Source: Minisyncoccia bacterium (lineage in GTDB: Bacteria > Patescibacteriota > Minisyncoccia > Phycocordibacterales > DATDWN01). From it: a stretch of 64,000 nucleotides of DNA. Positions 380-50,070 of this stretch are shown here, in pieces (the stretch's first letter is position 1; every line of letters starts with the position of its first letter). The stretch spans positions 108,610-172,609 of the forward strand of contig JBAQTF010000010.1 of the NCBI GenBank assembly GCA_049296855.1. The letters are read 5' to 3'. A program made the translations under genes and the position numbers. The notes under the pieces are model-generated. The model was not told the origin of the DNA, ran no database searches, and saw only the letters and a program-made list of their open reading frames with translations.

Positions 380-850
380 ATGCGAAGAAAAGTAACTAAC
401 AGAAACATAGTAGGAAAGGATAACGTATACCAATCAGAAAAAGTTGGGAAATTTATAAACTACATAATGATACGTGGTCAGAAAGAAACGGCGCGAAAGA
501 TTGTTTACGATGCATTCAACGTAATAAAAGAAAAAACAAAAACAGAAAACCCGATGGAAGTTTTTGATACAGCCTTGAAAAACACAGGACCTATGACAGA
601 AGTTAGATCTCGACGTGTTGGTGGTGCGAACTATCAAATTCCAAGAGAGGTCAGACCAGAAAGACGAGTTTTTCTTTCAATGAAATGGATCATTGAATCA
701 GCACGTAGTGGAAAGGGTAGCAAGATGGCTTCTCGACTCGCAGACGAAATAATTTTGGCTTCAAAAAACGAAGGTAAGGCAGTGAAAAAACGCGAAGATA
801 CTCATAAGATGGCTGAAGCGAACAAGGCATTCGCCCATTTCGCCTGGTAA
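380..850 (+). CDS. rpsG: 30S ribosomal protein S7
   Basis: The S7 family sequence is recognisable and the position after rpsL matches the str operon order. Confidence 0.9.
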   Translation: MRRKVTNRNIVGKDNVYQSEKVGKFINYIMIRGQKETARKIVYDAFNVIKEKTKTENPMEVFDTALKNTGPMTEVRSRRVGGANYQIPREVRPERRVFLSMKWIIESARSGKGSKMASRLADEIILASKNEGKAVKKREDTHKMAEANKAFAHFAW

Positions 851-1039
851 TCGGCTTCCAAATTTGGCGAACTCCTTGTTTCGTATTGAAAAATTCTCGT
901 CACCGTACTGTTGTACGTCTCCTCTCATTTTCCAATTCTCAACATCGGATTTCATCCAGATTTGAAACCCTCCAAAACTTTATCTACTTGACAATACGTA
1001 CTTATGTATGTTACGCTTGTGGTTAGAAGGAGACTAACA

Positions 1040-1574: not shown

Positions 1575-3716
1575 ATGAACAGAGACTATTCATTGGACAA
1601 GGTGCGTAATTTTGGAATAATCGCACACATTGATGCAGGAAAAACAACGACCTCAGAGCGTGTGCTTTTCTATACTGGAATGACTCACAAAATAGGTGAG
1701 GTGCACGAGGGTGAAACAGTAACGGACTGGATGGAGCAGGAGAGAGAGCGTGGTATCACTATTACGGCGGCGGCTATTACATGTTTCTGGAATCCGACTT
1801 ACATGACCAAAGGCGCAAAACCTGAATATCGTTTTAATATTATTGACACCCCTGGACATATTGACTTTACTGCTGAAGTGAAGAGAAGTTTGAGAGTTTT
1901 GGACGGCGCGGTTGTTGTATTTGACGGTGTAGCTGGGGTAGAACCACAATCAGAAACAAACTGGAGATATGCCGACGACGCTCAGACCCCTAGAATTTGT
2001 TTTATAAATAAACTGGACCGAACTGGTGCATCTTTTGAACGTTCATACGCATCTATTTTGGAACGTCTTACAAAAAACGCTGTCCGAGTTCAAATCCCAA
2101 TTGGTCTTGAAGATAAATTCGAAGGAGTTATAGACCTTTTGAAAATGAAGGCCTACTATTTTGAAGGAAACATGGGAATGACTATTCGCGAAGAGGAAGT
2201 GCCTAGCGAGTACCTTGAGGAAGCAAAGAAATATCGTGCAGAGCTAATTGAGAAGATTGTTGAACAAGACGATATTCTCATGGCTGAATATCTCGAAGGA
2301 AAAGAACCGTCATATGATGTTTTGAAAAAAACTTTACGAAAAGCATCTCTTGAAGTAAAAATTATTCCAGTTTTTGCAGGTAGTGCTTTGAAAAACAAAG
2401 GTGTTCAGCTCATACTCGACGGTGTAGTTGATTATCTTCCATCTCCAGTTGATATGCCTCCTGTTAGAGGATTGGATCCTGAAACTGGTGAGGAGATATT
2501 TAGAACTGCATCTGACACAGAACCATTTGCTGCATTGGCTTTCAAACTACAGAACGATCCGTTTGTCGGACAGCTAACATTCTTCCGTGTATATTCTGGA
2601 ACAATCGAATCTGGAACATACATTTATAACTCAACAACTGGCGAGAAAGAACGTCTTGGACGTATCGTCCGACTTCAAGCAGACAAACGTGAAGAAGTGA
2701 AAAAAGTTTTCGCTGGAGAGATCGCAGCAGCGGTGGGACTTAAATCTGCAAAGACTTCTCACACACTTTGTGATGAAGACAAACCAATTATTCTCGACCC
2801 AATTAAATTCGTCGATCCTGTAGTATCTCTACGCATAGAGCCAAAGACAAAAGCTGACCAAGAGAAAATGGGTATGGCCATGAAAAAACTTTCTGATGAA
2901 GATCCAACTTTCGTTATTTCTTCAAATACTGACACTGGTGAGAGTATTATTTCTGGAATGGGTGAATTACACCTAGAAATAATGGTTGACCGTATGAAAC
3001 GTGAATTCGGAGTTGAAGTAAATGTTGGTAAACCGCAAGTAGCATACCGCGAAACTATTCTTGGCTCTGCCGAAGCTGAACATAAATACATCAAGCAAAC
3101 TGGAGGTAAAGGTCAATATGGTCACGTTAAACTTACTATCAAACCTCTTCCAAAAATTGAAGAAGGAAAGAAAATCCCAAAGAATGTTCACCGATACGAA
3201 GACTTTGAATTCATCGACTCAATCAAAGGAGGTGTTATTCCACAAGAGTTTATTCCTGCTGTTGAGAAGGGTGTTCATGAAGCCATGGACAGAGGAATCG
3301 TGGCTGGATACAAAATGGTAAATATTTCTTGTGAACTTACATTTGGTTCTTACCACGATGTGGACTCATCTGAAATTGCTTACAAAATTGCCGCTTCACA
3401 AGCTTTCCAAGACGCAGCAAAACGCGCACGACCTGTGATACTAGAACCAATCATGAAAGTCGAAGCTATAATGCCAGAACAGTTCATGGGAGACATCACA
3501 GGCTCACTTTCTGGAAAACGCGGACAAATAGAAGGAATGGCTGAGAGAGGAATGCTTCGAGTAATTCACGCCAAAGTGCCCCTTTCGGAAATGTTTGGAT
3601 ATACAACTGACATACGTTCAATGACACAAGGAAGAGGTTCGGTTCAGATGGAATTTGATCACTACGAAGTGGTACCAGCGAATGTCGAGAAAGTGATTGT
3701 TGAGAGTCGAAAATAA
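1575..3716 (+). CDS. fusA: elongation factor G
   Basis: It has a GTPase G1 motif ([10 protein letters not shown]) and the domains of EF-G. The full length is 713 aa. Confidence 0.95.
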
Positions 3717-3732: not shown

Positions 3733-3763
3733 AAGGTGTTGCTACATAGCAACGCCTTTTTAG
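3733..3763 (+). terminator. rho-independent terminator after fusA
   Basis: The hairpin ggtgttgcta-cat-agcaacgcc is followed by ttttt. Confidence 0.5.
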
Positions 3764-5252: not shown

Positions 5253-5263
5253 TAACAATTGCT

Positions 5264-5292
5264 TGACTATTCCTAACCTTTTGTCTACTATG
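5264..5292 (+). promoter_or_regulatory. sigma70-like promoter upstream of tuf (TTGACT-N17-TACTAT)
   Basis: The -35 TTGACT is at 5264-5269, the spacer is 17 nt, and the -10 TACTAT is at 5287-5292. Confidence 0.45.
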
Positions 5293-5432: not shown

Positions 5433-6638
5433 ATGGCAGATTCAGCAGTATTTGATCGAAGTAAACCGCACATAAACGTGGGAACAATCGGTCACGTTGA
5501 CCATGGAAAGACTACAATAACAGCAGCTATTTTAACTGTGCTTAGCAGGGCAGGAAACGGTTTTTCAGCTACAGTAAAAGGCGTTGATCAAATTGACTCC
5601 GCTCCTGAGGAAAAAGCACGTGGAATTACTATCGCACTTTCTCACAGTGAATATGCAACTCCTACTCGTCACTATGCTCACGTAGATGCGCCTGGTCACG
5701 CTGACTATATTAAAAACATGATTACTGGTGCCGCTCAAATGGACGGTGCTGTACTCGTAGTAGCAGCAACTGATGGTGTGATGCCTCAAACAAGAGAACA
5801 CGTTCTACTTGCAAAACAAGTTGGAGTTCCAAAAATAATTGTATTTCTAAACAAATGCGACATGGTACCTGACAAAGAACTTATTGATTTGGTTGAGGAG
5901 GAAGTTCGAGAACTCCTTACAAAACAAGGCTTTGATGGTGCAAACGTTCCTATTATTCGAGGTTCAGGATTGAAGGCTCTTGAGTCAAAAGATAACTCTG
6001 ATGAATGGGCAAAGAAAATTCTTGAACTTGCAAACGCGCTTGATACATATTTCCCAATTCCAGAGCGAGATTTAGAGAAACCATTTCTTATGCCAGTTGA
6101 AGATATATTCTCAATCGAAGGACGAGGTACTGTAGTAACAGGACGTATTGAAAGAGGAGTCGTAAAAGTCGGTGAAGAAATTGAATGTATTGGTTTGAAA
6201 GATACACAAAAATACACAGTTACTGGTATTGAAATGTTCAACAAATCACTTGACCAAGGTCAAGCTGGAGACAACGCCGGAATATTGCTTCGAGGTGCAA
6301 AGAAAGAAGAAATTCACCGAGGACAAGTTCTTGCAAAACCAAAAACTGTAACTCCTCACACAGAGTTCACAGCTGAAGTCTACATTCTAAAAAAAGAGGA
6401 AGGTGGACGACACACGCCATTCTTCTCTGGTTACAAGCCACAATTCTACATCCGAACCACAGACGTTACAGGAGATGTGACTCTAAACGACGGAGTAGAA
6501 ATGGTTATGCCAGGAGACACAGTTACTTTCAAAGTAAAACTTGTTGCTCCAGTTGCGCTTGAAGATAAGACTAGATTTGCTATCCGAGAGGGGGGAAAGA
6601 CAGTCGGCGCCGGCGTCGTCACCAAAATAATCGCTTAG
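5433..6638 (+). CDS. tuf: elongation factor Tu
   Basis: It has the GHVDHGKTT motif and the full EF-Tu architecture. Confidence 0.95.
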
Positions 6639-6791
6639 AGAACTTCCAAATCTGGCGAATTTCTGTGTTCTCGGTTTTACTTACTCCACGCGCAGTACTC
6701 TAGTACAGCTTGGTCGCAAGCAAAACCTACGAACTTCGAAATTCATCTAGATTGTTAGAGTTTTTGTTACTATCACTTGCGGAGGAGATAC

Positions 6792-6983
6792 ATGTCTCAA
6801 GATCCAGTTTCGACACAGTCAGAAACAGCGAAGAAAAAGAAAGATCCGATCGATGTTCTGCGAGAACATATGGTTGGTGTCCAAGCATACGGGTATTCTT
6901 GGATGCATCCATCTGATATTGTGAGGGCAATCGATCAAGCAAAAAATGGAACACTGGGCCCATTCAAGCCAAATTTTTCGTAG
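6792..6983 (+). CDS. hypothetical small protein (64 aa)
   Basis: GGAGG lies 6 nt upstream of the ATG. A long hairpin terminator follows immediately at 6984-7035. Confidence 0.4.
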   Translation: MSQDPVSTQSETAKKKKDPIDVLREHMVGVQAYGYSWMHPSDIVRAIDQAKNGTLGPFKPNFS

Positions 6984-7035
6984 TCGCCTCGGGGGGAAAC
7001 CAAATCGGTTTCTCTCCGAGGCGGTTTTCTTTAAC
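6984..7035 (+). terminator. rho-independent terminator
   Basis: The outer stem cgcctcgg...ccgaggcg encloses a nested stem ggaaacc/ggtttc, and the tail is gttttctttaac. Confidence 0.6.
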
Positions 7036-7073: not shown

Positions 7074-7102
7074 TTGAATAAAAAAACATTATCTGCTAGT
7101 AT
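7074..7102 (+). promoter_or_regulatory. promoter TTGAAT-N17-TAGTAT upstream of rpsJ
   Basis: The -35 is at 7074-7079 and the -10 TAGTAT is at 7097-7102, preceded by tctgc. The same tctgcTAGTAT motif recurs at 7881-7892 and 14619-14629. Confidence 0.55.
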
Positions 7103-7120
7103 CTGTAAATCTCAATTGAC

Positions 7121-7863: not shown

Positions 7864-7892
7864 TTGATTTAAAAAAGGATATCTGCTAGTAT
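7864..7892 (+). promoter_or_regulatory. promoter TTGATT-N17-TAGTAT upstream of rplC
   Basis: The -35 is at 7864-7869 and tctgcTAGTAT spans 7882-7892. Confidence 0.5.
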
Positions 7893-8002
7893 AGCCAAAT
7901 CGCCGAAGAGGCTTTTTTAATGAGTGACTAGTGAAGGGCAATGTTCGGAAAATCTTTCCGATTACTGTCCGCAAATCGTCACTCCAAAATAGTATTAAGC
8001 AT

Positions 8003-10494: not shown

Positions 10495-10571
10495 TTTCGG
10501 TCTTTTCGCTCTATAAACTAAGAAACTCTTCAAGGTTCGACCTTGAAGTAGCAACGATGATATGCCTGATT

Positions 10572-10600
10572 GACATTCCTCTGGGTTTTGTATAGTATAA
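10572..10600 (+). promoter_or_regulatory. strong promoter TTGACA-N17-TAGTAT in the rplB-rpsS intergenic region
   Basis: The -35 TTGACA is at 10572-10577, the spacer is 17 nt, and the -10 TAGTAT is at 10595-10600. Confidence 0.55.
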
Positions 10601-10606
10601 ACGCCA

Positions 10607-10685
10607 CTAAGGCTATGAGCCTTTTTACATTCTGTTTGCGGTATTAGGTAAGTCAGTACCACTAACGATGTGGTTTTTGTTTTGA
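10607..10685 (+). ncRNA. candidate small RNA or leader transcript (about 80 nt)
   Basis: It starts just after the promoter above and ends at the hairpin ccac-taacgat-gtgg (10661-10675), which is followed by tttttgtttt. It contains no ORF. Confidence 0.3.
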
Positions 10686-10828
10686 CAAATAGGCAAAATG
10701 AATTCATCTGCGTTGTTGCTGTTCAATTTTGTTCATTCACCTTACTTTTGTAAGGCTTAATCACAAAATCTCCAGCACCTAGCATCTGAATCCATTTAGC
10801 CAATTTGTCTAAGTAGACAAATTAAAAA

Positions 10829-12923: not shown

Positions 12924-13178
12924 ATGACTACTCAAATATCAAAAAGAAAAACAATGAACGGTATTGTGACTTCAAATAAAATGAAAGATACTGTTGTCGT
13001 AGAAGTGTCACGTTTTGTAAAACATCCAAAGTATGATAAATATATCTCTATAAACAAAAAGTTTAAAGCTCACGATGCTGGAAACATGAAGAAAATAGGG
13101 GATAGGGTTACAATAGAAGAATGTGCACCCATTTCAAAAGATAAGAAATTCCGAATTATTCCGGATTCTAAAATTTAA
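12924..13178 (+). CDS. rpsQ: 30S ribosomal protein S17
   Basis: The motif GIVTSNKMKDTVVVEV...HPKYDKY is S17-like. Confidence 0.85.
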   Translation: MTTQISKRKTMNGIVTSNKMKDTVVVEVSRFVKHPKYDKYISINKKFKAHDAGNMKKIGDRVTIEECAPISKDKKFRIIPDSKI

Positions 13179-13194
13179 AATTGAAAATTATTTT

Positions 13195-13572
13195 ATGATA
13201 CAACCACGTTCAATAGTTAAAATAGCTGACAACACAGGAGCAAAGCTCGGAAGAATTTTTAAAGTGCTTGGAAGCTCAAAAAAAAGATACGCTTCGATAG
13301 GGGAGCTTGTTGTACTTTCTGTTCAAAAGGCAGAACCTCGAAAAACAACAAAGAAAAAAGATGTCTTGTACGCTATAGTTGTCAGACAAAAATCACCTTT
13401 CAGACGAAAGGATGGTTCATACTTACGTTTTGATGAAAATGCAGTTGTTATTGTCACAAAAGATGCTAAGAAAAAGGAGCCTGTAGCTGGTCGTATTTTC
13501 GGTCCAATTCCTCGAGAAATCGGTGAGGTTGGTTATCAAAAAATCATCTCTCTAGCCCCCGAAGTTGTATAA
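13195..13572 (+). CDS. rplN: 50S ribosomal protein L14
   Basis: The N-terminus [17 protein letters not shown] is canonical for L14. I chose the internal start at 13195. Confidence 0.9.
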
Positions 13573-14600: not shown

Positions 14601-14629
14601 TTGACTTTCTGTATTCATATTGCTAGTAT
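14601..14629 (+). promoter_or_regulatory. promoter TTGACT-N17-TAGTAT upstream of rpsN
   Basis: The -35 is at 14601-14606 and the -10 TAGTAT is at 14624-14629, preceded by ttgc. Confidence 0.55.
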
Positions 14630-14664: not shown

Positions 14665-14850
14665 ATGGCAAAAACATCAGTTAAAGCACGGGCGGCAAAA
14701 AAGCCCAAGTTTAGTACTCGGGCAACAAACCGATGCTTTCGATGTGGACGTGGGAGGGGATTTATGAGAGACTTTGGTCTCTGCCGAATCTGCTTCCGAG
14801 AGTTGGCCAATGAGGGCAAAATCCCAGGAATTAAGAAGAGTTCTTGGTAG
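14665..14850 (+). CDS. rpsN: 30S ribosomal protein S14 type Z (Zn-ribbon form)
   Basis: The protein is 61 aa and has the Cys cluster CFRCGRGRG...CRIC. I chose the internal ATG at 14665. Confidence 0.85.
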
Positions 14851-15043
14851 TCGCTCTGGTCTTTTTGTTCGATTTCTTCGTTTTCAGTTTTGTTTCCTCC
14901 ACGCGCAGTACGATTTGTACAGCTTGGTCACAAACAAAACCTCAAGCCTCGAACTCGAACAAAAATCCGCAGAGCTTGCACAAGTAGTTTCGGTAAGTCT
15001 TTGTTCACTAGAACGAGATACTACCAAGATATAATACAAAAAT

Positions 15044-15430
15044 ATGGATCCAGTATCAGACATGATTGTACGAATAAAGAACGCTTATGATTCAAAAAAA
15101 GAATCTGTGGTTTTACCTTGTTCAAAACTAAAACTTGCTATCCTTGATGTATTAATGAAAGAAGGATTTGTAAAATCCGTTGGGAAAAAAGGAAAGAAAA
15201 TAGCAAAATTTATTGAGGTAGGTTTAATCTACGATAACGGAACCCCTCGAGTTAGTGGAATAGAACGAGTTTCAAAAACATCAAAACGAATTTATAACAA
15301 AGTGAAAGATATAAAAAAGGTCAAAAGTGGAATCGGTTCACTAATACTTTCAACTCCAAAAGGTATTATGACAGACAAGGTAGCAAAGGAAGCGAAGGTT
15401 GGAGGCGAAGCATTGTTCAAAATCTGGTAA
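15044..15430 (+). CDS. rpsH: 30S ribosomal protein S8
   Basis: The S8 family sequence is recognisable. Confidence 0.9.
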   Translation: MDPVSDMIVRIKNAYDSKKESVVLPCSKLKLAILDVLMKEGFVKSVGKKGKKIAKFIEVGLIYDNGTPRVSGIERVSKTSKRIYNKVKDIKKVKSGIGSLILSTPKGIMTDKVAKEAKVGGEALFKIW

Positions 15431-15449
15431 AACTATATTAATTAATCAT

Positions 15450-15983
15450 ATGTCACGTATAGGAAAAAAAGTAATAGCAATTCCAAAAGGTACAGAAGTA
15501 ACAATGTCTCCTGGTGTTATTACTGTAAAAGGACCTCTTGGAACTTTGACTAAGAAATTCAAAAATGAGATTGTCATTACTATTGGAGCGACTGAAATAA
15601 CACTTATACCAAAACGAGTCACTCTAGAAAACAAGGCTTTGTGGGGAACATATGCTTCTCACATTATGAATATGATAGATGGTGTTACAAAACCATATGT
15701 TAAGAAATTAATACTTGAAGGTATTGGATACAAATCAGAGGTAAAGGGTACGAACCTAGTTTTAGCTCTTGGTTTTTCACATCCAGTTATTGTGCCGATT
15801 CCAACTACACTAAAGGTGACAGCAGAAAAGAACGTAATAACTGCCACAGGTAGTGATAAAGAAGTCGTTGGTGAGTTCGTTGCAAAAGTTCGAGCACTGA
15901 AAAAACCTGAACCTTATAAAGGAAAGGGAATGAGATACGAAGGTGAGGTAATTAAACGCAAACAGGGCAAGAAAACTGCTTAA
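15450..15983 (+). CDS. rplF: 50S ribosomal protein L6
   Basis: The N-terminus MSRIGKKVIAIPKG is canonical for L6. Confidence 0.9.
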   Translation: MSRIGKKVIAIPKGTEVTMSPGVITVKGPLGTLTKKFKNEIVITIGATEITLIPKRVTLENKALWGTYASHIMNMIDGVTKPYVKKLILEGIGYKSEVKGTNLVLALGFSHPVIVPIPTTLKVTAEKNVITATGSDKEVVGEFVAKVRALKKPEPYKGKGMRYEGEVIKRKQGKKTA

Positions 15984-16013
15984 AATAATTTCTAATTTTC
16001 AATTTCTAAAAAA

Positions 16014-16364
16014 ATGAAATCATCAAGTTTAAAAAAAGAAAAGAGGACAAGACGACATGTAAGAATACGTGCAAATATTTCTGGTACAAGTGTAATACCT
16101 CGTCTTTCTATCTTTAAATCTAACAAACACGTATCAGCTCAACTTGTTGATGATGAAAAAAATGTAACAATAGCTGGTAGTCATTCACGCAATGTAAAAG
16201 GAAAAACTATGATGGAAAAGTCAGTGCTCGTTGGAGAAGATATTGCAAAGAAAGCAGAAGCCTTGAAAGTAAAAAAAGTCGTCTTCGATCGGGGAGGCTT
16301 TATATATACTGGATGTGTTAAAGCACTTGCAGACGGTGCACGCAAAGGAGGATTGAAATTTTAG
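16014..16364 (+). CDS. rplR: 50S ribosomal protein L18
   Basis: The L18 family sequence is recognisable. Confidence 0.85.
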   Translation: MKSSSLKKEKRTRRHVRIRANISGTSVIPRLSIFKSNKHVSAQLVDDEKNVTIAGSHSRNVKGKTMMEKSVLVGEDIAKKAEALKVKKVVFDRGGFIYTGCVKALADGARKGGLKF

Positions 16365-16390
16365 AAATTGAAAATTAGAAATTAATTACT

Positions 16391-16975
16391 ATGGAACCAG
16401 ATGAAATAAAAATTGAAGAAGAAATATTGGTAGATCCTGCACCTATAACGGAAGAAGTTGCTCCTGTATCTGCACCTTCTCCTCGCGAGTTCCGAAAAAA
16501 CTCTCGAAAAGCTCATCCTAGAAGAGAAGCTCGTGTCAAACCTGAGTTTGACCAGAAAATTATAAGTATTCGCCGAGTAACTCGTGTGGTTACTGGTGGA
16601 CGAAGATTCGCTTTCTCTGTTGGTATCGTTATTGGCGACAGGAAGGGTCGTGTCGGAGTTGGATTAGGAAAAGCAGGAGATACGCCACTTGCTATCGACA
16701 AAGCTGTTAGAAATGCTAGAAAGAACATGATAAAAGTTAACTTAACAAAACATGGTAGTATTCATCACGAAGTTTTCGCAAAATATTCAAGTTCACGAGT
16801 ACTGATAATGCGAGCTCCGGGAAAAGGTATTCTCGCTGGTAGTTCTGTTCGAACTGTTCTAGAATTCGCTGGTATAAAAGAAGTAAGTAGTAAGATATTC
16901 TCTCGAAGTAAGAACAAAATAAACAATGCTAAGGCCGCAATAAAGGCATTGAAGCAGTTGAAACTAAAGAAATAA
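16391..16975 (+). CDS. rpsE: 30S ribosomal protein S5 with an N-terminal extension
   Basis: The S5 dsRBD and C-terminal domain are present. Confidence 0.9.
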   Translation: MEPDEIKIEEEILVDPAPITEEVAPVSAPSPREFRKNSRKAHPRREARVKPEFDQKIISIRRVTRVVTGGRRFAFSVGIVIGDRKGRVGVGLGKAGDTPLAIDKAVRNARKNMIKVNLTKHGSIHHEVFAKYSSSRVLIMRAPGKGILAGSSVRTVLEFAGIKEVSSKIFSRSKNKINNAKAAIKALKQLKLKK

Positions 16976-18783: not shown

Positions 18784-19371
18784 ATGTCTCCACAAACTTT
18801 TGTTTTTATTGGACGGTCTGGTTGCGGAAAAGGAACACAGGCAGATCTGTTAATGAAAAAACTGAAAGAAAAACAGCCAGACGATTTTATTTTTTATCTT
18901 GAAACTGGTCAAAAATTCCGTGATTTCATTTCTGCCTCTGGATATTCAAACCAATTAGCAAAAACAATTCAAGATAAAGGTGCGTTGCAACCGTCTTTTC
19001 TGGCTGTCTGGATTTGGTCAGATATTTTAATAGAAAAATTAAGGAAAGATGACCATCTTTTCATCGATGGAACACCTAGAAAGCTTGGAGAAGCTATAAT
19101 ATTTTTTGAAGCTCTTAAATTTTATTCTCGAAAACCAAATGTTATATATATAAATGTTTCTCGTACATGGTCCGAGGAGCGCCTCTCTGAACGTCATCGA
19201 TCTGATGATATGTTTGCGCTAGTGAAAAAACGACTAGACTGGTTTGATTCAGAAGTTATGCCAGCAGTTGAATATTTCAAAGATAGTTTAGATGTTAATT
19301 TTTTTGATGTAAATGGTGAGAGGTCTATAGAAGATATTCATACCGACATTGTCTCAAAGCTAAAATGGTAA
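18784..19371 (+). CDS. adk: adenylate kinase
   Basis: It has the P-loop GRSGCGKGTQ. Confidence 0.85.
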   Translation: MSPQTFVFIGRSGCGKGTQADLLMKKLKEKQPDDFIFYLETGQKFRDFISASGYSNQLAKTIQDKGALQPSFLAVWIWSDILIEKLRKDDHLFIDGTPRKLGEAIIFFEALKFYSRKPNVIYINVSRTWSEERLSERHRSDDMFALVKKRLDWFDSEVMPAVEYFKDSLDVNFFDVNGERSIEDIHTDIVSKLKW

Positions 19372-19531
19372 AATAGTTGAAATTATCTCATCTGCGTTGT
19401 TGCTAGTTTTATTTTTTCCGTGCGCAGTAGGTTTACTACAGCTTGGTCAAAAATAAAACGTCGCGCCTAGCATCTGAAACAATTTCAACTATTTTACAAG
19501 TACCAAATTTCATGTAATGTAATGATATAAC

Positions 19532-21202: not shown

Positions 21203-21610
21203 ATGTTAAAAACTTCTCTATTTAGAAAATCTGTCACACTGTTTTTAATAATCTTCTTCTTAAAGAAAATTGCCGAAATCTTTTATTTCCACTGGACGTT
21301 ATGGTGGTACGACGTGATATTACACTCTCTATCTGGTGGCCTAATTGGTCTAACTATAGTTTTGGTTTGGTCTAACTATCACGGACTGGAAAACTCCAAC
21401 AAATTAAAGATTATAACAACTACTCTTCTATTAGCTTTTATAATTGGTCTTTTGTGGGAAATTTTTGAGCTTTATTCAGGTGATACTTCTTTTAATGATG
21501 GCATCGTATACATAAGAGACACGGCTTCAGACCTCATAGCTGACGTCTGTGGTTCATTTTTTGGACTATTGTATGCCTATAACAAAGAACTAAAGGTAGA
21601 AAAAATATGA
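21203..21610 (+). CDS. hypothetical membrane protein
   Basis: It has about 4 TM helices. Confidence 0.4.
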   Translation: MLKTSLFRKSVTLFLIIFFLKKIAEIFYFHWTLWWYDVILHSLSGGLIGLTIVLVWSNYHGLENSNKLKIITTTLLLAFIIGLLWEIFELYSGDTSFNDGIVYIRDTASDLIADVCGSFFGLLYAYNKELKVEKI

Positions 21611-23010
21611 GCGATCTACAAATTACATTTTTTGGAGGAGTAGGCACAGTAACTGGTGCTAATTTTCTTTTAGAATCTCTCCAGACTAAATTACTAGTAG
21701 ATTGTGGACTTATTCAGGGCGTAAAAGAAAGTGCTCTGGAAAATAAAAAACTGTTCCCTTATGACGTAAAAAGTATTAATTATCTTTTCATCACTCACGC
21801 TCATATGGATCATATCGGTAGAGTGTGCAAATTAGTCAGAGATGGCTTTCGAGGGACTATCTACTCAACTCCTGAGACCAAAGAGTTGGCTCAGGTCATG
21901 ATTGTGGATGCAATGAAAGTTATGGAAATGAATTACAGAGAAGCTCCTCTGGACATGAAGGAGCCACCACTCTATGACACAAATGATTTTAATGTAACTT
22001 TTTCTCTTTGGAATACTATTCCGTACCATATACAAACAAAAATAAATGACGAGTTTTCTGTATACCTAAAAGATGCTGGACATATACTAGGGTCTTCGAT
22101 GTACGAGTTCAGCTACAAAAATCTTCGTGGGCCATGGAGTAGTAAACCGAAGAAAATTGTTTTTACAGGAGATTCAGGTAATTCACCAGCACCATTACTC
22201 AAAGATACGGAACTAATCACGGACGCTGATTATCTAATAGTAGACTCAGTTTACGGAGACAGAAATCATGAACCAAAAGATGAGAGGGATGAAAAATTCC
22301 GTCGTATTTCAACAGAGACAATACAAGCGAACGGCGCTCTGGTCATTCCTGCCTTTTCTATAGAACGTACGCAAGTTATTTTATATGAATTAAATAATTT
22401 GGTCGAAGAACATAAAATCCCATCTGTTCCTATTTTTCTCGATTCTCCTCTTGGAAGCAAAGTGACTGCTATTTACGCCCACACGATAAGAGACTTTAAT
22501 TCCGGAGTTCAAAAAGAAATAAAAGATGGGGATGATATTTTTCAATTTCCAAAATTAACTATTACTCATGGTTCGCGAGATTCACAAGATATAATAAACA
22601 CACCAAATCCAAAGATAATAATCGCAGGATCGGGTATGTCGTCTGGTGGCAGAGTAGTTGGTCATGAAATACATTTTCTCCCTGACCCAAAGTCGACGAT
22701 TCTTCTTATGGGTTATCAAGCTGTTGGAACTCTTGGCCGTCGTATACAAGACAGACCAAAAGAAGTGGAGATAAAAGACAGTATAATACCTATACGTGCT
22801 CGTATAGAGATGATTTCTGGCTACTCCTCTCACAAGGATTCCGATGGCTTAGTTAATATGGTTTCTGACACATCAAAAACAGTTAAAAAAGTCTTTGTCG
22901 TCATGGGTGAACCAAAATCATCAACATTCTTAGTCCAACGACTTCGGGACGAACTAGAGGTGGATGCTATTTATCCCGAGAGAGGAAAAGTATATGATTT
23001 GAGTAAATAA
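21607..23010 (+). CDS. MBL-fold beta-CASP ribonuclease (RNase J/CPSF-like)
   Basis: It has the HxHxDH motif (HAHMDH) and a beta-CASP C-terminal region. Confidence 0.7.
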   Translation: MSDLQITFFGGVGTVTGANFLLESLQTKLLVDCGLIQGVKESALENKKLFPYDVKSINYLFITHAHMDHIGRVCKLVRDGFRGTIYSTPETKELAQVMIVDAMKVMEMNYREAPLDMKEPPLYDTNDFNVTFSLWNTIPYHIQTKINDEFSVYLKDAGHILGSSMYEFSYKNLRGPWSSKPKKIVFTGDSGNSPAPLLKDTELITDADYLIVDSVYGDRNHEPKDERDEKFRRISTETIQANGALVIPAFSIERTQVILYELNNLVEEHKIPSVPIFLDSPLGSKVTAIYAHTIRDFNSGVQKEIKDGDDIFQFPKLTITHGSRDSQDIINTPNPKIIIAGSGMSSGGRVVGHEIHFLPDPKSTILLMGYQAVGTLGRRIQDRPKEVEIKDSIIPIRARIEMISGYSSHKDSDGLVNMVSDTSKTVKKVFVVMGEPKSSTFLVQRLRDELEVDAIYPERGKVYDLSK

Positions 23011-24941: not shown

Positions 24942-25025
24942 AAAAAGAAGTATAACGCAGGAGACGGATTAACCAGTTGTTTATTACAAAACAAAAACTC
25001 CTATTCGGGAGTTTTTGTTAATTTG

Positions 25026-25421
25026 TGGAGAAGGAGAGAATTGAACTCTCGTGCAAATAAGATTTGATAATGTTTCTACACGACGTATTCAATTTAATTT
25101 TCTCGACTTCTATTCTTTAAATTGAAAAAATAAACAGAAGTCCAGTTTTCTTTTTCTCGAAACTAACTCGAAACTAAGTTAGCTTCCAGTCCGATGATAT
25201 ATCAATCACTTACCGTAACAGACTTAGGGTAGTGACCGCTCACTGAGTTTAATCTAAAAGATTAGACGAAAGCGAGAGCAAACTCATTCGCCATAAATGG
25301 TGAACGAACTGCTTTTGCAAAGGTGTTTTTAGCATCTATGCTTTGAAGCCTTTTAAAGAGTTACTCCAGCTCTGTCGTGCACATTGTCAAAGAATTTATC
25401 TGTCTAAACCTGTCATCCCCC
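25026..25421 (-). ncRNA. ssrA: tmRNA (ssrA)
   Basis: On the minus strand the T-arm GAGAG-TTCAATT-CTCTC is followed by CTTCTCCA, giving an acceptor 3' strand and a discriminator A. The 5' end is GGGGGAU, which provides the G3.U pair. A tag reading frame encodes ANEFALAFV* (25262-25291). The gene lies next to smpB. Confidence 0.6.
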
Positions 25422-25573: not shown

Positions 25574-26017
25574 TTATCTATCACTGTACTCACGTCTTGT
25601 TTGTTTTTCGGTATCACGCTTTTTCAGCGTTTCTCGTTTATCGAACTTTTTCTTACCACGTCCGACGCCAAGATCCACCTTTAAAACTCTGCCCTCATTG
25701 TACACTGAAAGTGGTACTATTGTCAATCCTTTGGCTTTCTCAATATCAGCCAGAGTTTTTATCTCATTCTTGGTCAAAAGAAGCTTACGGTTACGGTGGG
25801 CATCATAGTCTTTAGGGGTATTTTCGGGCTGATATGGCGGTATAAAGGCGTTTATAAGGAAAGCCTCACCTCCACGTGCTGTGACGTATGAACCCTCCAA
25901 TGAACCCTGTCCTTTGCGGAGGGATTTAACCTCAAAACCAAAAAGTTCTATACCAGCAGTATATTTGTCGGTAATTTCGTAGTTAAAATGGGCTTTTTTA
26001 TTGCTTATTAACGCCAT
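25574..26017 (-). CDS. smpB: SsrA-binding protein SmpB
   Basis: The SmpB family sequence is recognisable. Confidence 0.9.
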   Translation of the reverse strand: MALISNKKAHFNYEITDKYTAGIELFGFEVKSLRKGQGSLEGSYVTARGGEAFLINAFIPPYQPENTPKDYDAHRNRKLLLTKNEIKTLADIEKAKGLTIVPLSVYNEGRVLKVDLGVGRGKKKFDKRETLKKRDTEKQTRREYSDR

Positions 26018-31541: not shown

Positions 31542-32090
31542 ATGAGTGTAATAAAACACAAAAATCAACGAGTTGGTATTTTTATTGATACCCAAAACCT
31601 TTACCATTGCGCTAAAAATATTTATGGAGCGAAGGTTAACTTCGATCAAGTGGTCAAAGATGGTCTATCAGGAAGACTGTTAACTAGAGCAGTAGCCTAC
31701 GTTATCACCACAGAGTCAGGTGAAGAGAAAAATTTTTTTGAAGCTCTAGGAAAAATGGGAATAGAAACAAAAACAAAAAATTTACAGATTTTCTCTGGAG
31801 GAGCAAAAAAGGCTGATTGGGATGTGGGACTTGCAGTAGACGCTATCAAATTAGCGCCGAAACTTGATGCAATCATTCTTGTCACAGGTGATGGAGATTT
31901 TGTCCCACTTATTGAATATTTACAAAATGTTGGTTGTCAGGTAGAAGTTATGTCTTTTGGTAAAGCCACATCAGCAAAACTTATAGAAGTAAGTGACGAC
32001 TTTATAGACCTAGACACAAACCCAGTCAAATACCTTATTGGTTTCGGAGGAAACAAACGTATACGCAGAGGACCACGTACTTCACAATAA
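31542..32090 (+). CDS. NYN/LabA-like (PIN-like) domain protein
   Basis: The N-terminal motif VGIFIDTQNL is NYN-like, and acidic residues are conserved. Confidence 0.7.
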   Translation: MSVIKHKNQRVGIFIDTQNLYHCAKNIYGAKVNFDQVVKDGLSGRLLTRAVAYVITTESGEEKNFFEALGKMGIETKTKNLQIFSGGAKKADWDVGLAVDAIKLAPKLDAIILVTGDGDFVPLIEYLQNVGCQVEVMSFGKATSAKLIEVSDDFIDLDTNPVKYLIGFGGNKRIRRGPRTSQ

Positions 32091-36561: not shown

Positions 36562-36722
36562 TAAAAAATTAAAACAACATTCGAAAACGACACGTTAGAA
36601 CTTTCACAATCTGGATACAGTTCTAGGCGGAAAGGTAAATGGGCAAGGAGACGTACATGTGGTACGTTGACGAGAATATTTGCCTTTCCAACAACGAAAT
36701 GTGCCAGATTTGGAAGTTCTAA

Positions 36723-37847
36723 CTAGAATGGATTCTTGGCTCCGCGGATTTCAAAGTGTAGATGCGTGCCGGTTATCCCCTTAACGCTACCGGAATGTCC
36801 CATTTTACCTATAACTTGTCCTTGCTGTACATGATCACCAACGTTAACTAAAGTTGCGCTTAAATGTCCGTACAGAGTCTGAGTACCATTTCCGTGTTTG
36901 AGTACGATATAAGAACCATAACCACCATTCCATCCAGTTGCTCGAGAAATGATTACATCTCCCTCGGCCGAAGCGAGAATGTTTGAACCGTATGCTGAAG
37001 CAAGATCAACACCGTTGTGGCCGTGAATACCTTGAGTTTTTATACCGCCTATAATAGGTCGCATGTAATAACCAGCATAAACAGGATAGGAGGGACCAGT
37101 TTTACCAACACCACCAGAAGTAGAGCCAGAAATAGTAACCGCTTCACCATCTGGAACAACGATAATATCTCCTATGGCCAATTTATCATCCTTATTTAAA
37201 TTATTATATTGCAAAATTTCATCTAAATCTCCTTTATGAAGTTTAGCTATACTTTGCAGAGTATCACCAGACTTTACGATATGTTGTATCCCAGAAATAG
37301 GGAGAATGACCAGAGTCTGACCGGAAGTTATAGTATTTCCTTTTATATCGTTTGCCCAACGTACAGTATTTACGCTGACACCAAACATTTTGGCTATAGC
37401 AGGTAGTGTATCTCCAGAATGAACTACGTAGACACTAATCTGATCTTCGTCTAGTGATTTCATCAATGAAGTAGGTGGAGGTACAGTTTCTGGAGAAAGA
37501 GATGTCCCTTCAACAATAGCTAACTCTCCAGTCGAAGTCGCACCTTGACCAGGAGAATTGACTGCCTGAAGTAAAAACATGTTTTGAGAATTTAAAACTA
37601 CCTCTTCAGCCTGTACCTTTTCTGTACAAAAAATCCAAAGAAAACATGTGGTAGAACCCTTAGCACTTACTGTATTAGGCATAAAAATAGACACAAATAA
37701 AACAGGCAAAACCACAGTGTTGCAAAGTAGAAAATTACATATGTTCACCACAGAAAGGCGAGATCCCACGTGACGGCATTTAACAATAAACGCCCTACCC
37801 ATGCTTTTAAGACCTGTCCAGAACAGTGGATCTTGTAGTAGACCCAA
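36723..37847 (-). CDS. LysM-domain M23 peptidoglycan endopeptidase
   Basis: It has two LysM motifs and the M23 zinc motif HxxxD...HLHFE. The start is uncertain. Confidence 0.8.
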   Translation of the reverse strand: MGLLQDPLFWTGLKSMGRAFIVKCRHVGSRLSVVNICNFLLCNTVVLPVLFVSIFMPNTVSAKGSTTCFLWIFCTEKVQAEEVVLNSQNMFLLQAVNSPGQGATSTGELAIVEGTSLSPETVPPPTSLMKSLDEDQISVYVVHSGDTLPAIAKMFGVSVNTVRWANDIKGNTITSGQTLVILPISGIQHIVKSGDTLQSIAKLHKGDLDEILQYNNLNKDDKLAIGDIIVVPDGEAVTISGSTSGGVGKTGPSYPVYAGYYMRPIIGGIKTQGIHGHNGVDLASAYGSNILASAEGDVIISRATGWNGGYGSYIVLKHGNGTQTLYGHLSATLVNVGDHVQQGQVIGKMGHSGSVKGITGTHLHFEIRGAKNPF

Positions 37848-49558: not shown

Positions 49559-49993
49559 ATGAAATACCAAGTACCACAATTTATAGATGTGGAGGACAAA
49601 ATAGTCGGCCCTTTTACTGTAAAACAATTCATTTATGTCGTCGGTGGGGCGGGAATGGCTTTTATTATATACAGATTTCTACCAATATACATATCTGTAA
49701 TACTCTTAGCTGTGACAATCCCTCTTTCTCTAGCACTAGCTTTTTATAAAGTAAATAACAAACCTTTTATTGACTTTCTTGAGTCAGCTTTTCTCTACTA
49801 CACAAAAAACAACTTATACATCTGGAAAAAGGAGGAGAAAAAGATTGCGGAGTCGGAAATCAAAGCGACCAGAATGACACAAGTTCATGTTCCAAGACTT
49901 TCTGACAGTAAATTAAAAGAGCTTTCGTGGTCGCTCGATATTAATGAAAATCTAAATCCACTTACAGGTGATGACGGAAAGAATACCAAATAA
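49559..49993 (+). CDS. PrgI/VirB3-like small membrane protein
   Basis: The protein is 144 aa and has a hydrophobic hairpin (VVGGAGMAFIIY...ILLAVTIPLSLALAF). Its start codon overlaps the stop of the preceding gene, and a VirB4-like gene lies downstream. Confidence 0.4.
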   Translation: MKYQVPQFIDVEDKIVGPFTVKQFIYVVGGAGMAFIIYRFLPIYISVILLAVTIPLSLALAFYKVNNKPFIDFLESAFLYYTKNNLYIWKKEEKKIAESEIKATRMTQVHVPRLSDSKLKELSWSLDINENLNPLTGDDGKNTK

Positions 49994-50070
49994 TTTCTAA
50001 TTTCTAGTTCATTAAAACCGTAGTTTTTAGAAATTGAAAATTAGAAATTACTTTATGTTATAATAAAATC

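Follow-up and report, generated by a model that had tools for sequence, protein, structure and literature searches.

A stop-codon-adjacent hairpin between rpsN and rpsH belongs to a repeat family of Parcubacteria

What lies between rpsN and rpsH in the ribosomal-protein cluster of a Minisyncoccia bacterium, and what might it do there? The 64,000-nucleotide (nt) stretch analyzed here (contig JBAQTF010000010.1, referred to as the window) is part of a low-GC bacterial chromosome and contains the str, S10, and spc ribosomal-protein clusters in the order rpsG, fusA, tuf, ... rplB, rpsS ... rplE, rpsN, rpsH, rplF ... secY, adk, map. Its rpsN-rpsH gap measures 193 nt (14851-15043), compared with 5-86 nt in relatives free of an insertion. 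A preliminary description held that a conserved hairpin, copy B, fills an atypical gap of 190 nt at this point. The unusual size is real, whereas the filling is not complete: copy B takes up about 123 of the 193 nt, and the remaining ~65 nt (~14980-15043) form a separate element that is kept before rpsH with or without copy B. The gap thus consists of two stacked elements, copy B followed by an rpsH leader.

As RNA, copy B folds into a long imperfect hairpin, or rod, with a minimum free energy of -41.9 kcal/mol, against a mean of -22.1 kcal/mol for shuffled sequences (z = -5.48; 0 of 200 shuffles were as stable). A covariance model scores it at 109 bits on the + strand (E 4e-21) and at 12.5 bits on the - strand. 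The apex is formed by a module named core 1, in which CCA/TGG, GC/GC, and GTAC/GTAC mini-helices surround small pyrimidine-rich loops; an exact sequence match puts it precisely where it had been located. The core was found once in the window, with 0 occurrences expected by chance at up to 3 mismatches. The extent originally given to the element, 14865-14960, lies inside the hairpin, the true extent being larger (14853-14975), and the sharing of flanks among copies proved real by repeat finding and alignment.

Copy B is overlapped by the open reading frames (ORFs) 14774..15034 and 14890..15090, which had been suspected to be spurious, and by two more, 14844..14987 (+) and 14884..15063 (-). That one of these ORFs of 47-86 codons encodes a small protein is extremely improbable. 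Single-nucleotide indels break the overlapping ORFs in the three orthologous loci L070, L082, and L128, where frames, boundaries, and extents differ; a conserved translated ORF was sought in these relatives and none was found, so that the spurious nature of the ORFs and the reading as a nucleotide element both stand. Moreover, substitutions among the orthologues are paired across the stem, as in GCTCTG/CAGAGC versus TTTACAG/CTAGTAAA versus TTTCTGA/TTCAGAAA, and thus track base-pairing, not codons. Nineteen of 20 relatives lack the sequence altogether. Judged from these comparisons, copy B is a repeated nucleotide hairpin element and not a gene; the earlier wording "conserved hairpin element" holds in this sense, but not in the sense of a fixed feature of the locus, as only 1 of the 20 relatives anchored on S8 carries it.

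Covariation indicates that the hairpin structure is under selection. RNAalifold applied to a MAFFT alignment (A2) yielded 33 pairs, 24 of which show compensatory double changes. Among 117 model-aligned copies (A3), 92.3% of cells hold standard pairs, compared with 68.2% after shuffling (the observed value was not reached in any of 500 shuffles), pairing falls to 35-43% when partners are slid by 1-3 columns, and double changes occur in 30 of the 33 modelled pairs. A3 was fitted to the model and its figures are therefore flattered, but the independent MAFFT result agrees. The apex mini-helices covary in copies outside pattern selection as well (GC to AU, CG to GC/AU), for example in L128 1446-1589, L128 244-386, and L063 2879-3022. 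On the sense strand, G.U pairs are conserved at four positions, and at columns 29-192 G.U is the commonest pair (48 of 116). Overall, 239 G.U pairs stand against 108 A.C mismatches, 98 of the G.U pairs coming from the pattern-selected core.

The family to which copy B belongs was collected by a pattern scan (GCGCAGTA-N4-10-TACAGCTTGGTC) of one genome per bacterial or archaeal species, which returned at least 117 loci; family counts given here (e.g. 117 or 121 copies) are those of the sequences collected. Four listed loci (L053, L059, L068, and L075) are chance matches in unrelated phyla, about the number expected for 20 specified bases. All other listed loci (at least ~110) have the full rod of ~125 nt and derive from metagenome-assembled genomes of Parcubacteria/Patescibacteria, with record labels including Zambryski-, Taylor-, Yonath-, Vogel-, Nomura-, and Harrisonbacteria, Paceibacterota, Minisyncoccia, and many "uncultured Saccharibacteria". 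Many assemblies give 3-4 loci each among the listed matches. One match on a viral contig comprised the core only, without arms, and was rejected as chance. On present evidence, the repeat family appears restricted to Parcubacteria (candidate phyla radiation (CPR)/Patescibacteria). Its density in the sampled sequence is about 1 copy per 10-16 kb, with 6 copies in the 64-kb window and 5 copies in 82 kb of S8-anchored loci.

From base to tip, the rod consists of a variable basal stem at or including the upstream stop codon, a conserved middle, a second variable stem, and an apex, for which the family has about three alternative hairpins. The middle reads TTTGG-CGCA-TTTCT-TCG-TTGC ... GCGCC-TCGAA-CTGCA-TCCAAA, with GGCGCA-TTTCT-TCG-TTGC paired to GCGCC-TCGAA-CTGCA-TCC. 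Composite forms include a tandem pair (L081 1014-1155 and 1166-1306) and a head-to-head pair (L092 3027-3171(+) and 3171-3310(-)). Other composites (L012 4014-4158, L008 26-52, and L055 7701-7845) have a small extra hairpin nested in the second stem or lack the 3' arm. A search of the whole window against Rfam 15 at gathering thresholds returned transfer-messenger RNA (tmRNA) and one tRNA and nothing else, while a permissive scan of 14840-14990 gave noise matches to miRNA-precursor hairpins and unrelated families (E ≥0.75, far below gathering). No description of the element was found in the full-text literature that was searchable on repeats, miniature inverted-repeat transposable elements (MITEs), and palindromic or structured RNAs in Parcubacteria/Patescibacteria/CPR, or in that on the biology of repetitive extragenic palindromes (REPs).

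When a covariance model built from 87 copies (R1) was run over the window, six copies were found, five on the + strand and one on the - strand (Table 1); the opposite strands of the strong copies score just ~12-18 bits. In copies D, E, and F the outer and middle parts are retained under a different apex, TCGTCACCKTAC...GTAMGGCTCCTC or TCACCKTAC...GTAMGGCT. Copy F joins the family's outer arms to core 2 (TCGTCACCGTAC..GTACGTCTCC), and copy D, which lies downstream of the promoter-like site at 10570-10598, has outer arms like those of copy C and a third apex (TCACCTTAC..GTAAGGCT). Copy C carries core 1 with a GTAG/CTAC apex and encloses the adk stop TAA in its basal stem. Copy E directly follows a minus-strand M23/LysM peptidase gene (36726-37847, identified by Pfam). 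Paralogues within the window are 50-67% identical.

Table 1. Positions of the hairpin copies and of associated features in the window (CM, covariance-model match)
Feature	Position	CM match	Strand	Basis and remarks
Copy B	14853-14975	14844-14988	+	Long imperfect hairpin (rod) beginning 3 nt past the rpsN stop; fold and covariance model
Core 1 of copy B	14899-14929		+	Apex module, CCACGCGCAGTAC-gattt-GTACAGCTTGGTC; exact match
Copy F	853-970	843-984	+	After rpsG (S7, ...AHFAW*); 24.9 bits, E 0.009; fold
Copy A	6640-6763	6631-6775	+	After tuf (ends 6638); core 1; 96.7 bits; fold
Copy D	10684-10809	10679-10818	+	rplB-rpsS gap; 48.3 bits; fold -43.2 kcal/mol, z -8.4
Copy C	19368-19497	19362-19507	+	adk-map; 104.4 bits; fold -44.5 kcal/mol, z -6.7
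Copy E	36597-36720	36585-36728	-	Core 2 apex; 43 bits; fold
rpsN (zinc-type S14, 61 aa)	14665-14850		+	ORF and translation; stop TAG 14848-14850
Candidate rpsH leader	~14980-15043		+	P1 (TTTCGGTA/TACCAAGA); invariant AAGTC and GATAC flank a variable hairpin
rpsH (S8)	15044-15430		+	ORF; relatives 45-84% identity
Promoter-like TTGACT-N17-TAGTAT, TG-extended	14601-14629		+	Promoter scan; before rpsN
Promoter-like motif	10570-10598			Window
Promoter-like motif	5263-5291			Window
Promoter-like motif	7074-7111			Window
Promoter-like motif	7864-7901			Window
Promoter-like motif	~1957-1990			Locus L121
Promoter-like motif	~414-447			Locus L125
beta-CASP/RMMBL ribonuclease (RNase J/CPSF-like)	21607-23007		+	Could process structured mRNA; candidate only
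NYN-domain nuclease	31542-32087		+	Could process structured mRNA; candidate only

The placement of the element relative to genes is strongly biased. Of 121 copies, 91 have their 5' edge where an ORF on the same strand ends that spans at least 60 codons from stop to stop, 3 have only an antisense ORF ending at the other edge, and the remaining 27 show neither arrangement (5' untranslated regions (UTRs), tandem or head-to-head pairs, contig ends). The first base of the stop codon falls 1-11 nt into the model match, that is, just before or inside the first basal pairs. Distances to the downstream gene range from 40 to more than 1000 nt, and this gene is convergent in 15 of 65 cases. Since the 5' abutment is steady while downstream distance and orientation vary, the element is tied to the 3' end and the strand of the upstream gene. 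Upstream genes, identified from C-terminal sequences and Pfam, recur: S7 (12 times), HU and KhpA (5 each), EF-Tu (3), S14 (3-4), M23 peptidase and LepA (3 each), besides SSB, L20, S6, L2, L6, SecY, and Adk. The S7-linked position, as in copy F, was seen in 12 other genomes. Some copies enclose the last 1-5 codons of the upstream gene together with its stop in the basal stem (L009, L014, L020, L033, and L100, after khpA; window 19368-19371). After khpA, ...GAC CTA AAA ATC TAA pairs with the 3' arm, so that such copies are partly coding. Stop-codon choice proved uninformative as evidence that the element supplies the stop itself: TAG terminates 34% of linked genes and 27% of the others, a difference that is not significant (p = 0.22). 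Linked genes seldom end in TGA (3/74 vs 96/677), which may only reflect highly expressed genes. No known mobilisation mechanism explains the combination of strict stop-codon abutment, sense orientation, and pyrimidine-only loops.

Occupancy of the S14|S8 junction was evaluated in a sample unbiased by the element, 24 metagenome loci fetched by S8 similarity (45-84% identity), 20 of which span the junction and keep the S14 C-terminus ...IPGIKKSSW. The junction is filled in L128 alone. Among the genome loci of the pattern scan, L070 and L082 likewise carry the element after S14. Elsewhere in relatives it occurs after S8 (L122), reversed between rplN and rplX (L128), and reversed between the rpsN promoter and start codon (L121 and L125). 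A near-identical 5' arm, TAGTCGCTCYGGTCTTTTTG, is found after S14 here, after S7 in L097 and L110, and after HU in L071 and L037. Such patchy occupancy, with subtypes at shifting sites, is by these comparisons the behaviour of an interspersed repeat that was mobile at least anciently. The four orthologous B copies, which differ by paired changes in the basal stem, are 76-86% identical, compared with 50-63% for the adjoining S14 third codon positions (15-19 of 30 sites). This higher conservation, measured on a small sample of sites, suggests that B copies are old and are held by purifying selection once placed. As to insertion boundaries, many type-1 copies read TA-GAACTT...AAGTTC-TA, in which TA may be a target duplication or, being self-complementary, the end of the palindrome, and TAG...TAG (window) and TAA...TAA (L128) repeats found 8-9 nt beyond the stem are suggestive only. 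Filled and empty S14|S8 sites have diverged too far for the limits of the element to be placed.

Relatives free of copy B (L118/L125, L126/L127, L121) often have other, unrelated AT-rich hairpin insertions at the S14-S8 junction. From these alignments, palindromic sequences seem to have settled repeatedly at the spot just past the S14 stop. A second repeat family, rich in AT (TTTTAGAAATTGAAAATTAGAAATTA and its inverse), was noted in the window at 13171-13195, 15981-16012, 16359-16392, and 49983-50055; rplR (L18) is bracketed by inverted copies, and a further pair is located near 50.0 kb. Sequences like AATTTTCAATT...GAAAATTGA, similar to this second family, fill the S14-S8 gap in L119, L129, and L131.

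The second element of the gap has the form GTAGTTTCGGTA-AGTC-variable hairpin-GATAC-TACCAAGA-TATAATACAAAAAT-ATG. It occurs 5' of rpsH in relatives with and without copy B (L118-L136), and the S14-S8 gaps of insertion-free relatives (53-86 nt) are made up of this one conserved motif. Compensatory changes affect 6 of 9 predicted pairs, including 4 of 5 in the outer helix P1, and AGTC and GA(T/A)AC hardly vary. In more distant relatives (S8 identity 45-55%), the gap measures 5-16 nt and the leader is absent. A permissive Rfam scan of 14970-15070 gave no relevant match. The architecture looks like that of the S8 site in 16S rRNA helix 21 (A595-C599/G639-C643 in Escherichia coli), making this a candidate S8 autoregulatory leader, a putative mimic of the S8-binding rRNA. 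Autoregulatory leaders of ribosomal proteins are single-copy, belong to one operon, and mimic the rRNA site of the protein. This description fits the element at 14980-15043 and not copy B, which is multi-copy and follows unrelated genes such as those for HU, SSB, M23 peptidase, and Adk. Dissection of the gap thus provides a second lead, a candidate S8 leader of a type absent from Rfam.

Transcription of copy B likely starts from the promoter-like site at 14601-14629, and the same motif is present 5' of rpsN in L121 and L125. The scan of the + strand detected zero promoter sites within the rpsN-rpsH gap; a -10-like TATAAT at 15030-15035 lacks an acceptable -35. The scan total did not rise above that of shuffled sequences (44 vs 48.8), and only recurring TTGAC(A/T)-N17-TAGTAT sites were used. 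This motif (often TGCTAGTAT) recurs inside the ribosomal-protein cluster, besides its position 5' of rpsN in relatives. Several transcription units therefore seem to make up the S10/spc cluster, separated for instance by a terminator and promoter between rplE and rpsN.

Could copy B itself be a terminator of the rpsN transcript, whether factor-dependent or intrinsic but lacking a U-tract? In favour of this, its hairpin is stable and stands straight after a stop codon, several copies (e.g. copy F) lie upstream of promoter-like sites, and convergent downstream genes are found in 15 of 65 cases. Yet neither a U-tract nor a T-run follows the stem and the terminator scan does not call copy B, whereas the window has canonical U-tract terminators at other places (3733-3758 and 6982-7026). 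As the S8 leader occupies the rest of the gap, rpsH and the essential genes downstream have no promoter of their own, and in element-free relatives the gap measures 53-86 nt. With no U-tract and no rpsH promoter, RNA polymerase must read through copy B. A reversed copy between rplN and rplX, ~15 nt from the next start codon, also speaks against termination. The terminator reading was therefore rejected as very improbable.

The transcribed strand is also poor in translation signals. Unpaired bases of the sense strand are 73% pyrimidine and 6% G; Shine-Dalgarno (SD)-like 4-mers number 0.39 per element in sense and 2.95 in antisense, and SD-plus-start combinations 7 and 94, respectively. We infer that the sense orientation is translation-silent and that the antisense orientation would seed spurious ribosome binding, an effect that by itself might account for much of the orientation bias.

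Taken together, we think it somewhat probable that copy B is a co-transcribed palindromic repeat, similar to REP and ERIC, that acts, if at all, as an mRNA 3' hairpin. The element would be transcribed within the mRNA of the preceding gene, here rpsN-rpsH-... from the promoter-like site at 14601, and would allow read-through while punctuating the polycistronic mRNA as a stable, translation-silent 3' hairpin. It might form a barrier that keeps 3'-to-5' exonucleases off the upstream cistron, or a site at which a double-strand-specific RNase processes the mRNA. REP elements and T7 RNase III sites are known to protect the mRNA upstream of them through such 3' hairpins, and S8 exerts retroregulation in the E. 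coli spc operon. At the present locus, rpsN could be shielded or uncoupled from decay or repression acting at the adjacent S8-regulated leader. The stem base would bring the stop codon beside the sequence that follows the element, perhaps making a 125-nt insertion near-neutral for ribosome hand-over. The family has spread to differing sites in differing genomes, each settled copy then being kept as a hairpin by selection.

Several observations weigh against this proposal. A stabilising role alone does not explain the abutment to stop codons. Selection against the SD-rich antisense strand might entirely account for the orientation bias, with no positive function. In most of the sample, core 1 is nearly invariant because the search pattern selected for it, which does not apply to conservation outside the core. 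No target-site duplication or clean comparison of empty and filled sites was obtained, and Pfam searches of 20 window ORFs (21.2-48.8 kb) revealed no mobilising enzyme, whether transposase or integrase. Finally, the variable basal stem has more A.C/C.A mismatches (53) than G.U pairs (32), and the reverse complement folds better (mean -46.7 vs -38.4 kcal/mol), the sense strand being the better folder in 4 of 121 copies. Part of this advantage arises because the energy model scores the pyrimidine-rich sense loops worse than their purine-rich complement. Thermodynamics therefore fails to single out the sense RNA as the selected fold; folding energy favours the antisense strand, contrary to what the linkage to genes indicates.

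A first alternative is a DNA-only element, whose single-stranded bottom-strand hairpin would be the substrate of an HUH or tyrosine enzyme, as in REP-RAYT systems, IS200/IS605 ends, or attC sites, the RNA being a harmless by-product. We regard this as quite unlikely. The bottom strand does fold better by ~8 kcal/mol, and attC sites are likewise reported to fold better on that strand. Conserved bulges and asymmetric loops, patchy occupancy, and the same subtype at different genes in different genomes would also fit, as would the core-2 apex (CGTC or CCTC, a stem, and a 4-5 nt loop), which resembles CGTC-tagged REPs (PMC3733652). However, the termini are the least conserved part, the annotated 21-49 kb of the window holds no transposase or integrase, and inspection of the consensus revealed no attC core sites (GTTRRRY/RYYYAAC). 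A DNA-only element would moreover leave the orientation linked to the upstream gene and the 5' abutment unexplained, and wherever the top strand conserves a G.U pair, the bottom strand would have an A.C mismatch.

A second alternative, which we hold possible although rather unlikely, is a dedicated cis-acting RNA signal, in which internal loops and apex are bound or cut by one Parcubacteria protein or RNase, as punctuation serving the host and not as a selfish repeat. It would account for a middle section that is at least 80% conserved over many species outside the search pattern (TtCTTnGTT ... gCCTcGaAcT), for G.U pairs fixed at defined positions, and for orthologous copies that evolve more slowly than third codon positions. 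The recurrence of sites after S7, HU, KhpA, and EF-Tu in different species and the ratio of sense to antisense-only abutment, ~30:1, point the same way. The window also encodes a beta-CASP RNase and a NYN-domain nuclease (Table 1), which are candidates only. On the other hand, unpaired bases of the B orthologues are less conserved than paired ones (59-84% vs 83-87%), three different apex modules are interchangeable, junction occupancy is patchy (1/20 at S14|S8), and reversed copies are tolerated within operons and 5' UTRs. A more specific, lineage-wide version appears unlikely too: a dedicated Parcubacteria nuclease or RNA-binding protein would recognise the stop-enclosing rod and cut or cap transcripts gene by gene. 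If true, such punctuation would amount to post-transcriptional control of ribosomal and other housekeeping operons and would explain the purifying selection at S7|EF-G, EF-Tu|S10, and S14|S8.

Whatever its function, the family is suited to a curated model, being abundant and showing unusually strong covariation (alignments A2 and A3; model R1). Its presence accounts for many atypical gaps and spurious small ORFs annotated in Parcubacteria, and it offers a handle on mRNA processing or stabilisation in organisms not yet growable alone.

Further features were noted in the window. The rplB-rpsS gap (10495-10828, 334 nt) contains, besides copy D, a hairpin (10528-10548), the promoter-like site, two small hairpins with T-runs (10609-10623 and 10658-10674), and a 5-codon mini-ORF (ATG 10668 ... 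TGA 10683-10685, MWFLF*) ending at the base of copy D; these features may constitute a leader or attenuator for rpsS. A short ORF (ATG 6793, MSQDPVSTQSETAKKKKDPIDVL...; region 6793-7030) lies between copy A and the terminator at 6982-7026 (20-bp stem and T-run). The tmRNA gene (102.6 bits; 25023-25420 (-)) adjoins smpB (25577-26017 (-)), and between them is a 50-nt inverted repeat with 78% complementarity (25409-25458/25519-25568).

How does the element compare with known systems? By-eye comparison of the consensus with the K-turn, loop E/sarcin-ricin, the 11-nt receptor, and attC core sites gave no fit. Like attC, it is an imperfect hairpin (57-141 nt in attC) right after the stop of the preceding ORF, in fixed orientation, with a better-folding bottom strand, ends conserved in shape, and a varying centre. 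Its consensus, however, contains no R''/R' core sites (RYYYAAC...GTTRRRY) on either strand, and it has neither integrase nor cassette array, the preceding genes being core housekeeping genes in conserved operons. The TRIT repeats of Mycobacterium tuberculosis are conserved hairpins repeated downstream of stop codons; unlike the present element, which is read through inside operons, they lie mostly between convergent genes and are proposed terminators. RNase III cuts intercistronic hairpins of the R1.1 type in T7 early mRNA and those of rplL-rpoB and rpsO-pnp in E. coli, leaving a protective 3' stem. These too are irregular, internally looped hairpins between cistrons that RNA polymerase reads through, but they are single-copy and locus-specific, whereas the element is a dispersed repeat and its cleavage is putative.

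Closer parallels are offered by ERIC/IRU, the 127-bp enterobacterial repeat, and by the MITE-like Correia/NEMIS of Neisseria, whose long RNA hairpins can alter mRNA stability or be cut by RNase III. They share with the element the form of ~100-155 bp imperfect palindromes in transcribed intergenic regions, operons included. Many type-1 copies appear by eye to be flanked by TA...TA, as in the Correia TA duplication, although the TA is indistinguishable from palindrome ends. Sequence similarity is absent, no parent insertion sequence is known for the element, and its stop-codon placement and orientation bias are much stricter. Whereas MITEs conserve their terminal inverted repeats, the element's termini vary and covary around a conserved interior; double changes affect all 9 basal-stem pairs, and the subtypes have completely different sequences there.

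REPs, organised as BIMEs and REPINs, comprise GTAG- and CGTC-tagged families (PMC3733652, PMC3337134). They mostly follow coding regions, lying between co-directional as well as convergent genes, and are plausibly transcribed (PMC3733652). The present family is likewise multi-copy, extragenic, hairpin-forming, and located mainly downstream of genes, and the CGTC/CCTC tag of its core-2 apex precedes a stem and a 4-5 nt loop as in CGTC REPs. Liang, Rudd, and Deutscher reportedly found in 2015 that a REP near a stop codon influences both translation and the decay of the mRNA. REPINs are long hairpins of ~100 nt with long vertical persistence. Whereas REPs are units of 20-40 nt and REPINs two inverted REPs, the element is a single rod of 125 nt with a conserved non-palindromic middle, interchangeable apexes, arms that are not REP-like palindromes, and ends that lack a conserved terminal tetranucleotide tag; its bias toward the sense orientation is very strong. 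A RAYT was not found among the 20 window ORFs scanned (21.2-48.8 kb). Although it departs from the defining features of each named family, the element thus falls into one general class with REP/REPIN, ERIC, and Correia repeats, and it is REP and ERIC that it resembles most.

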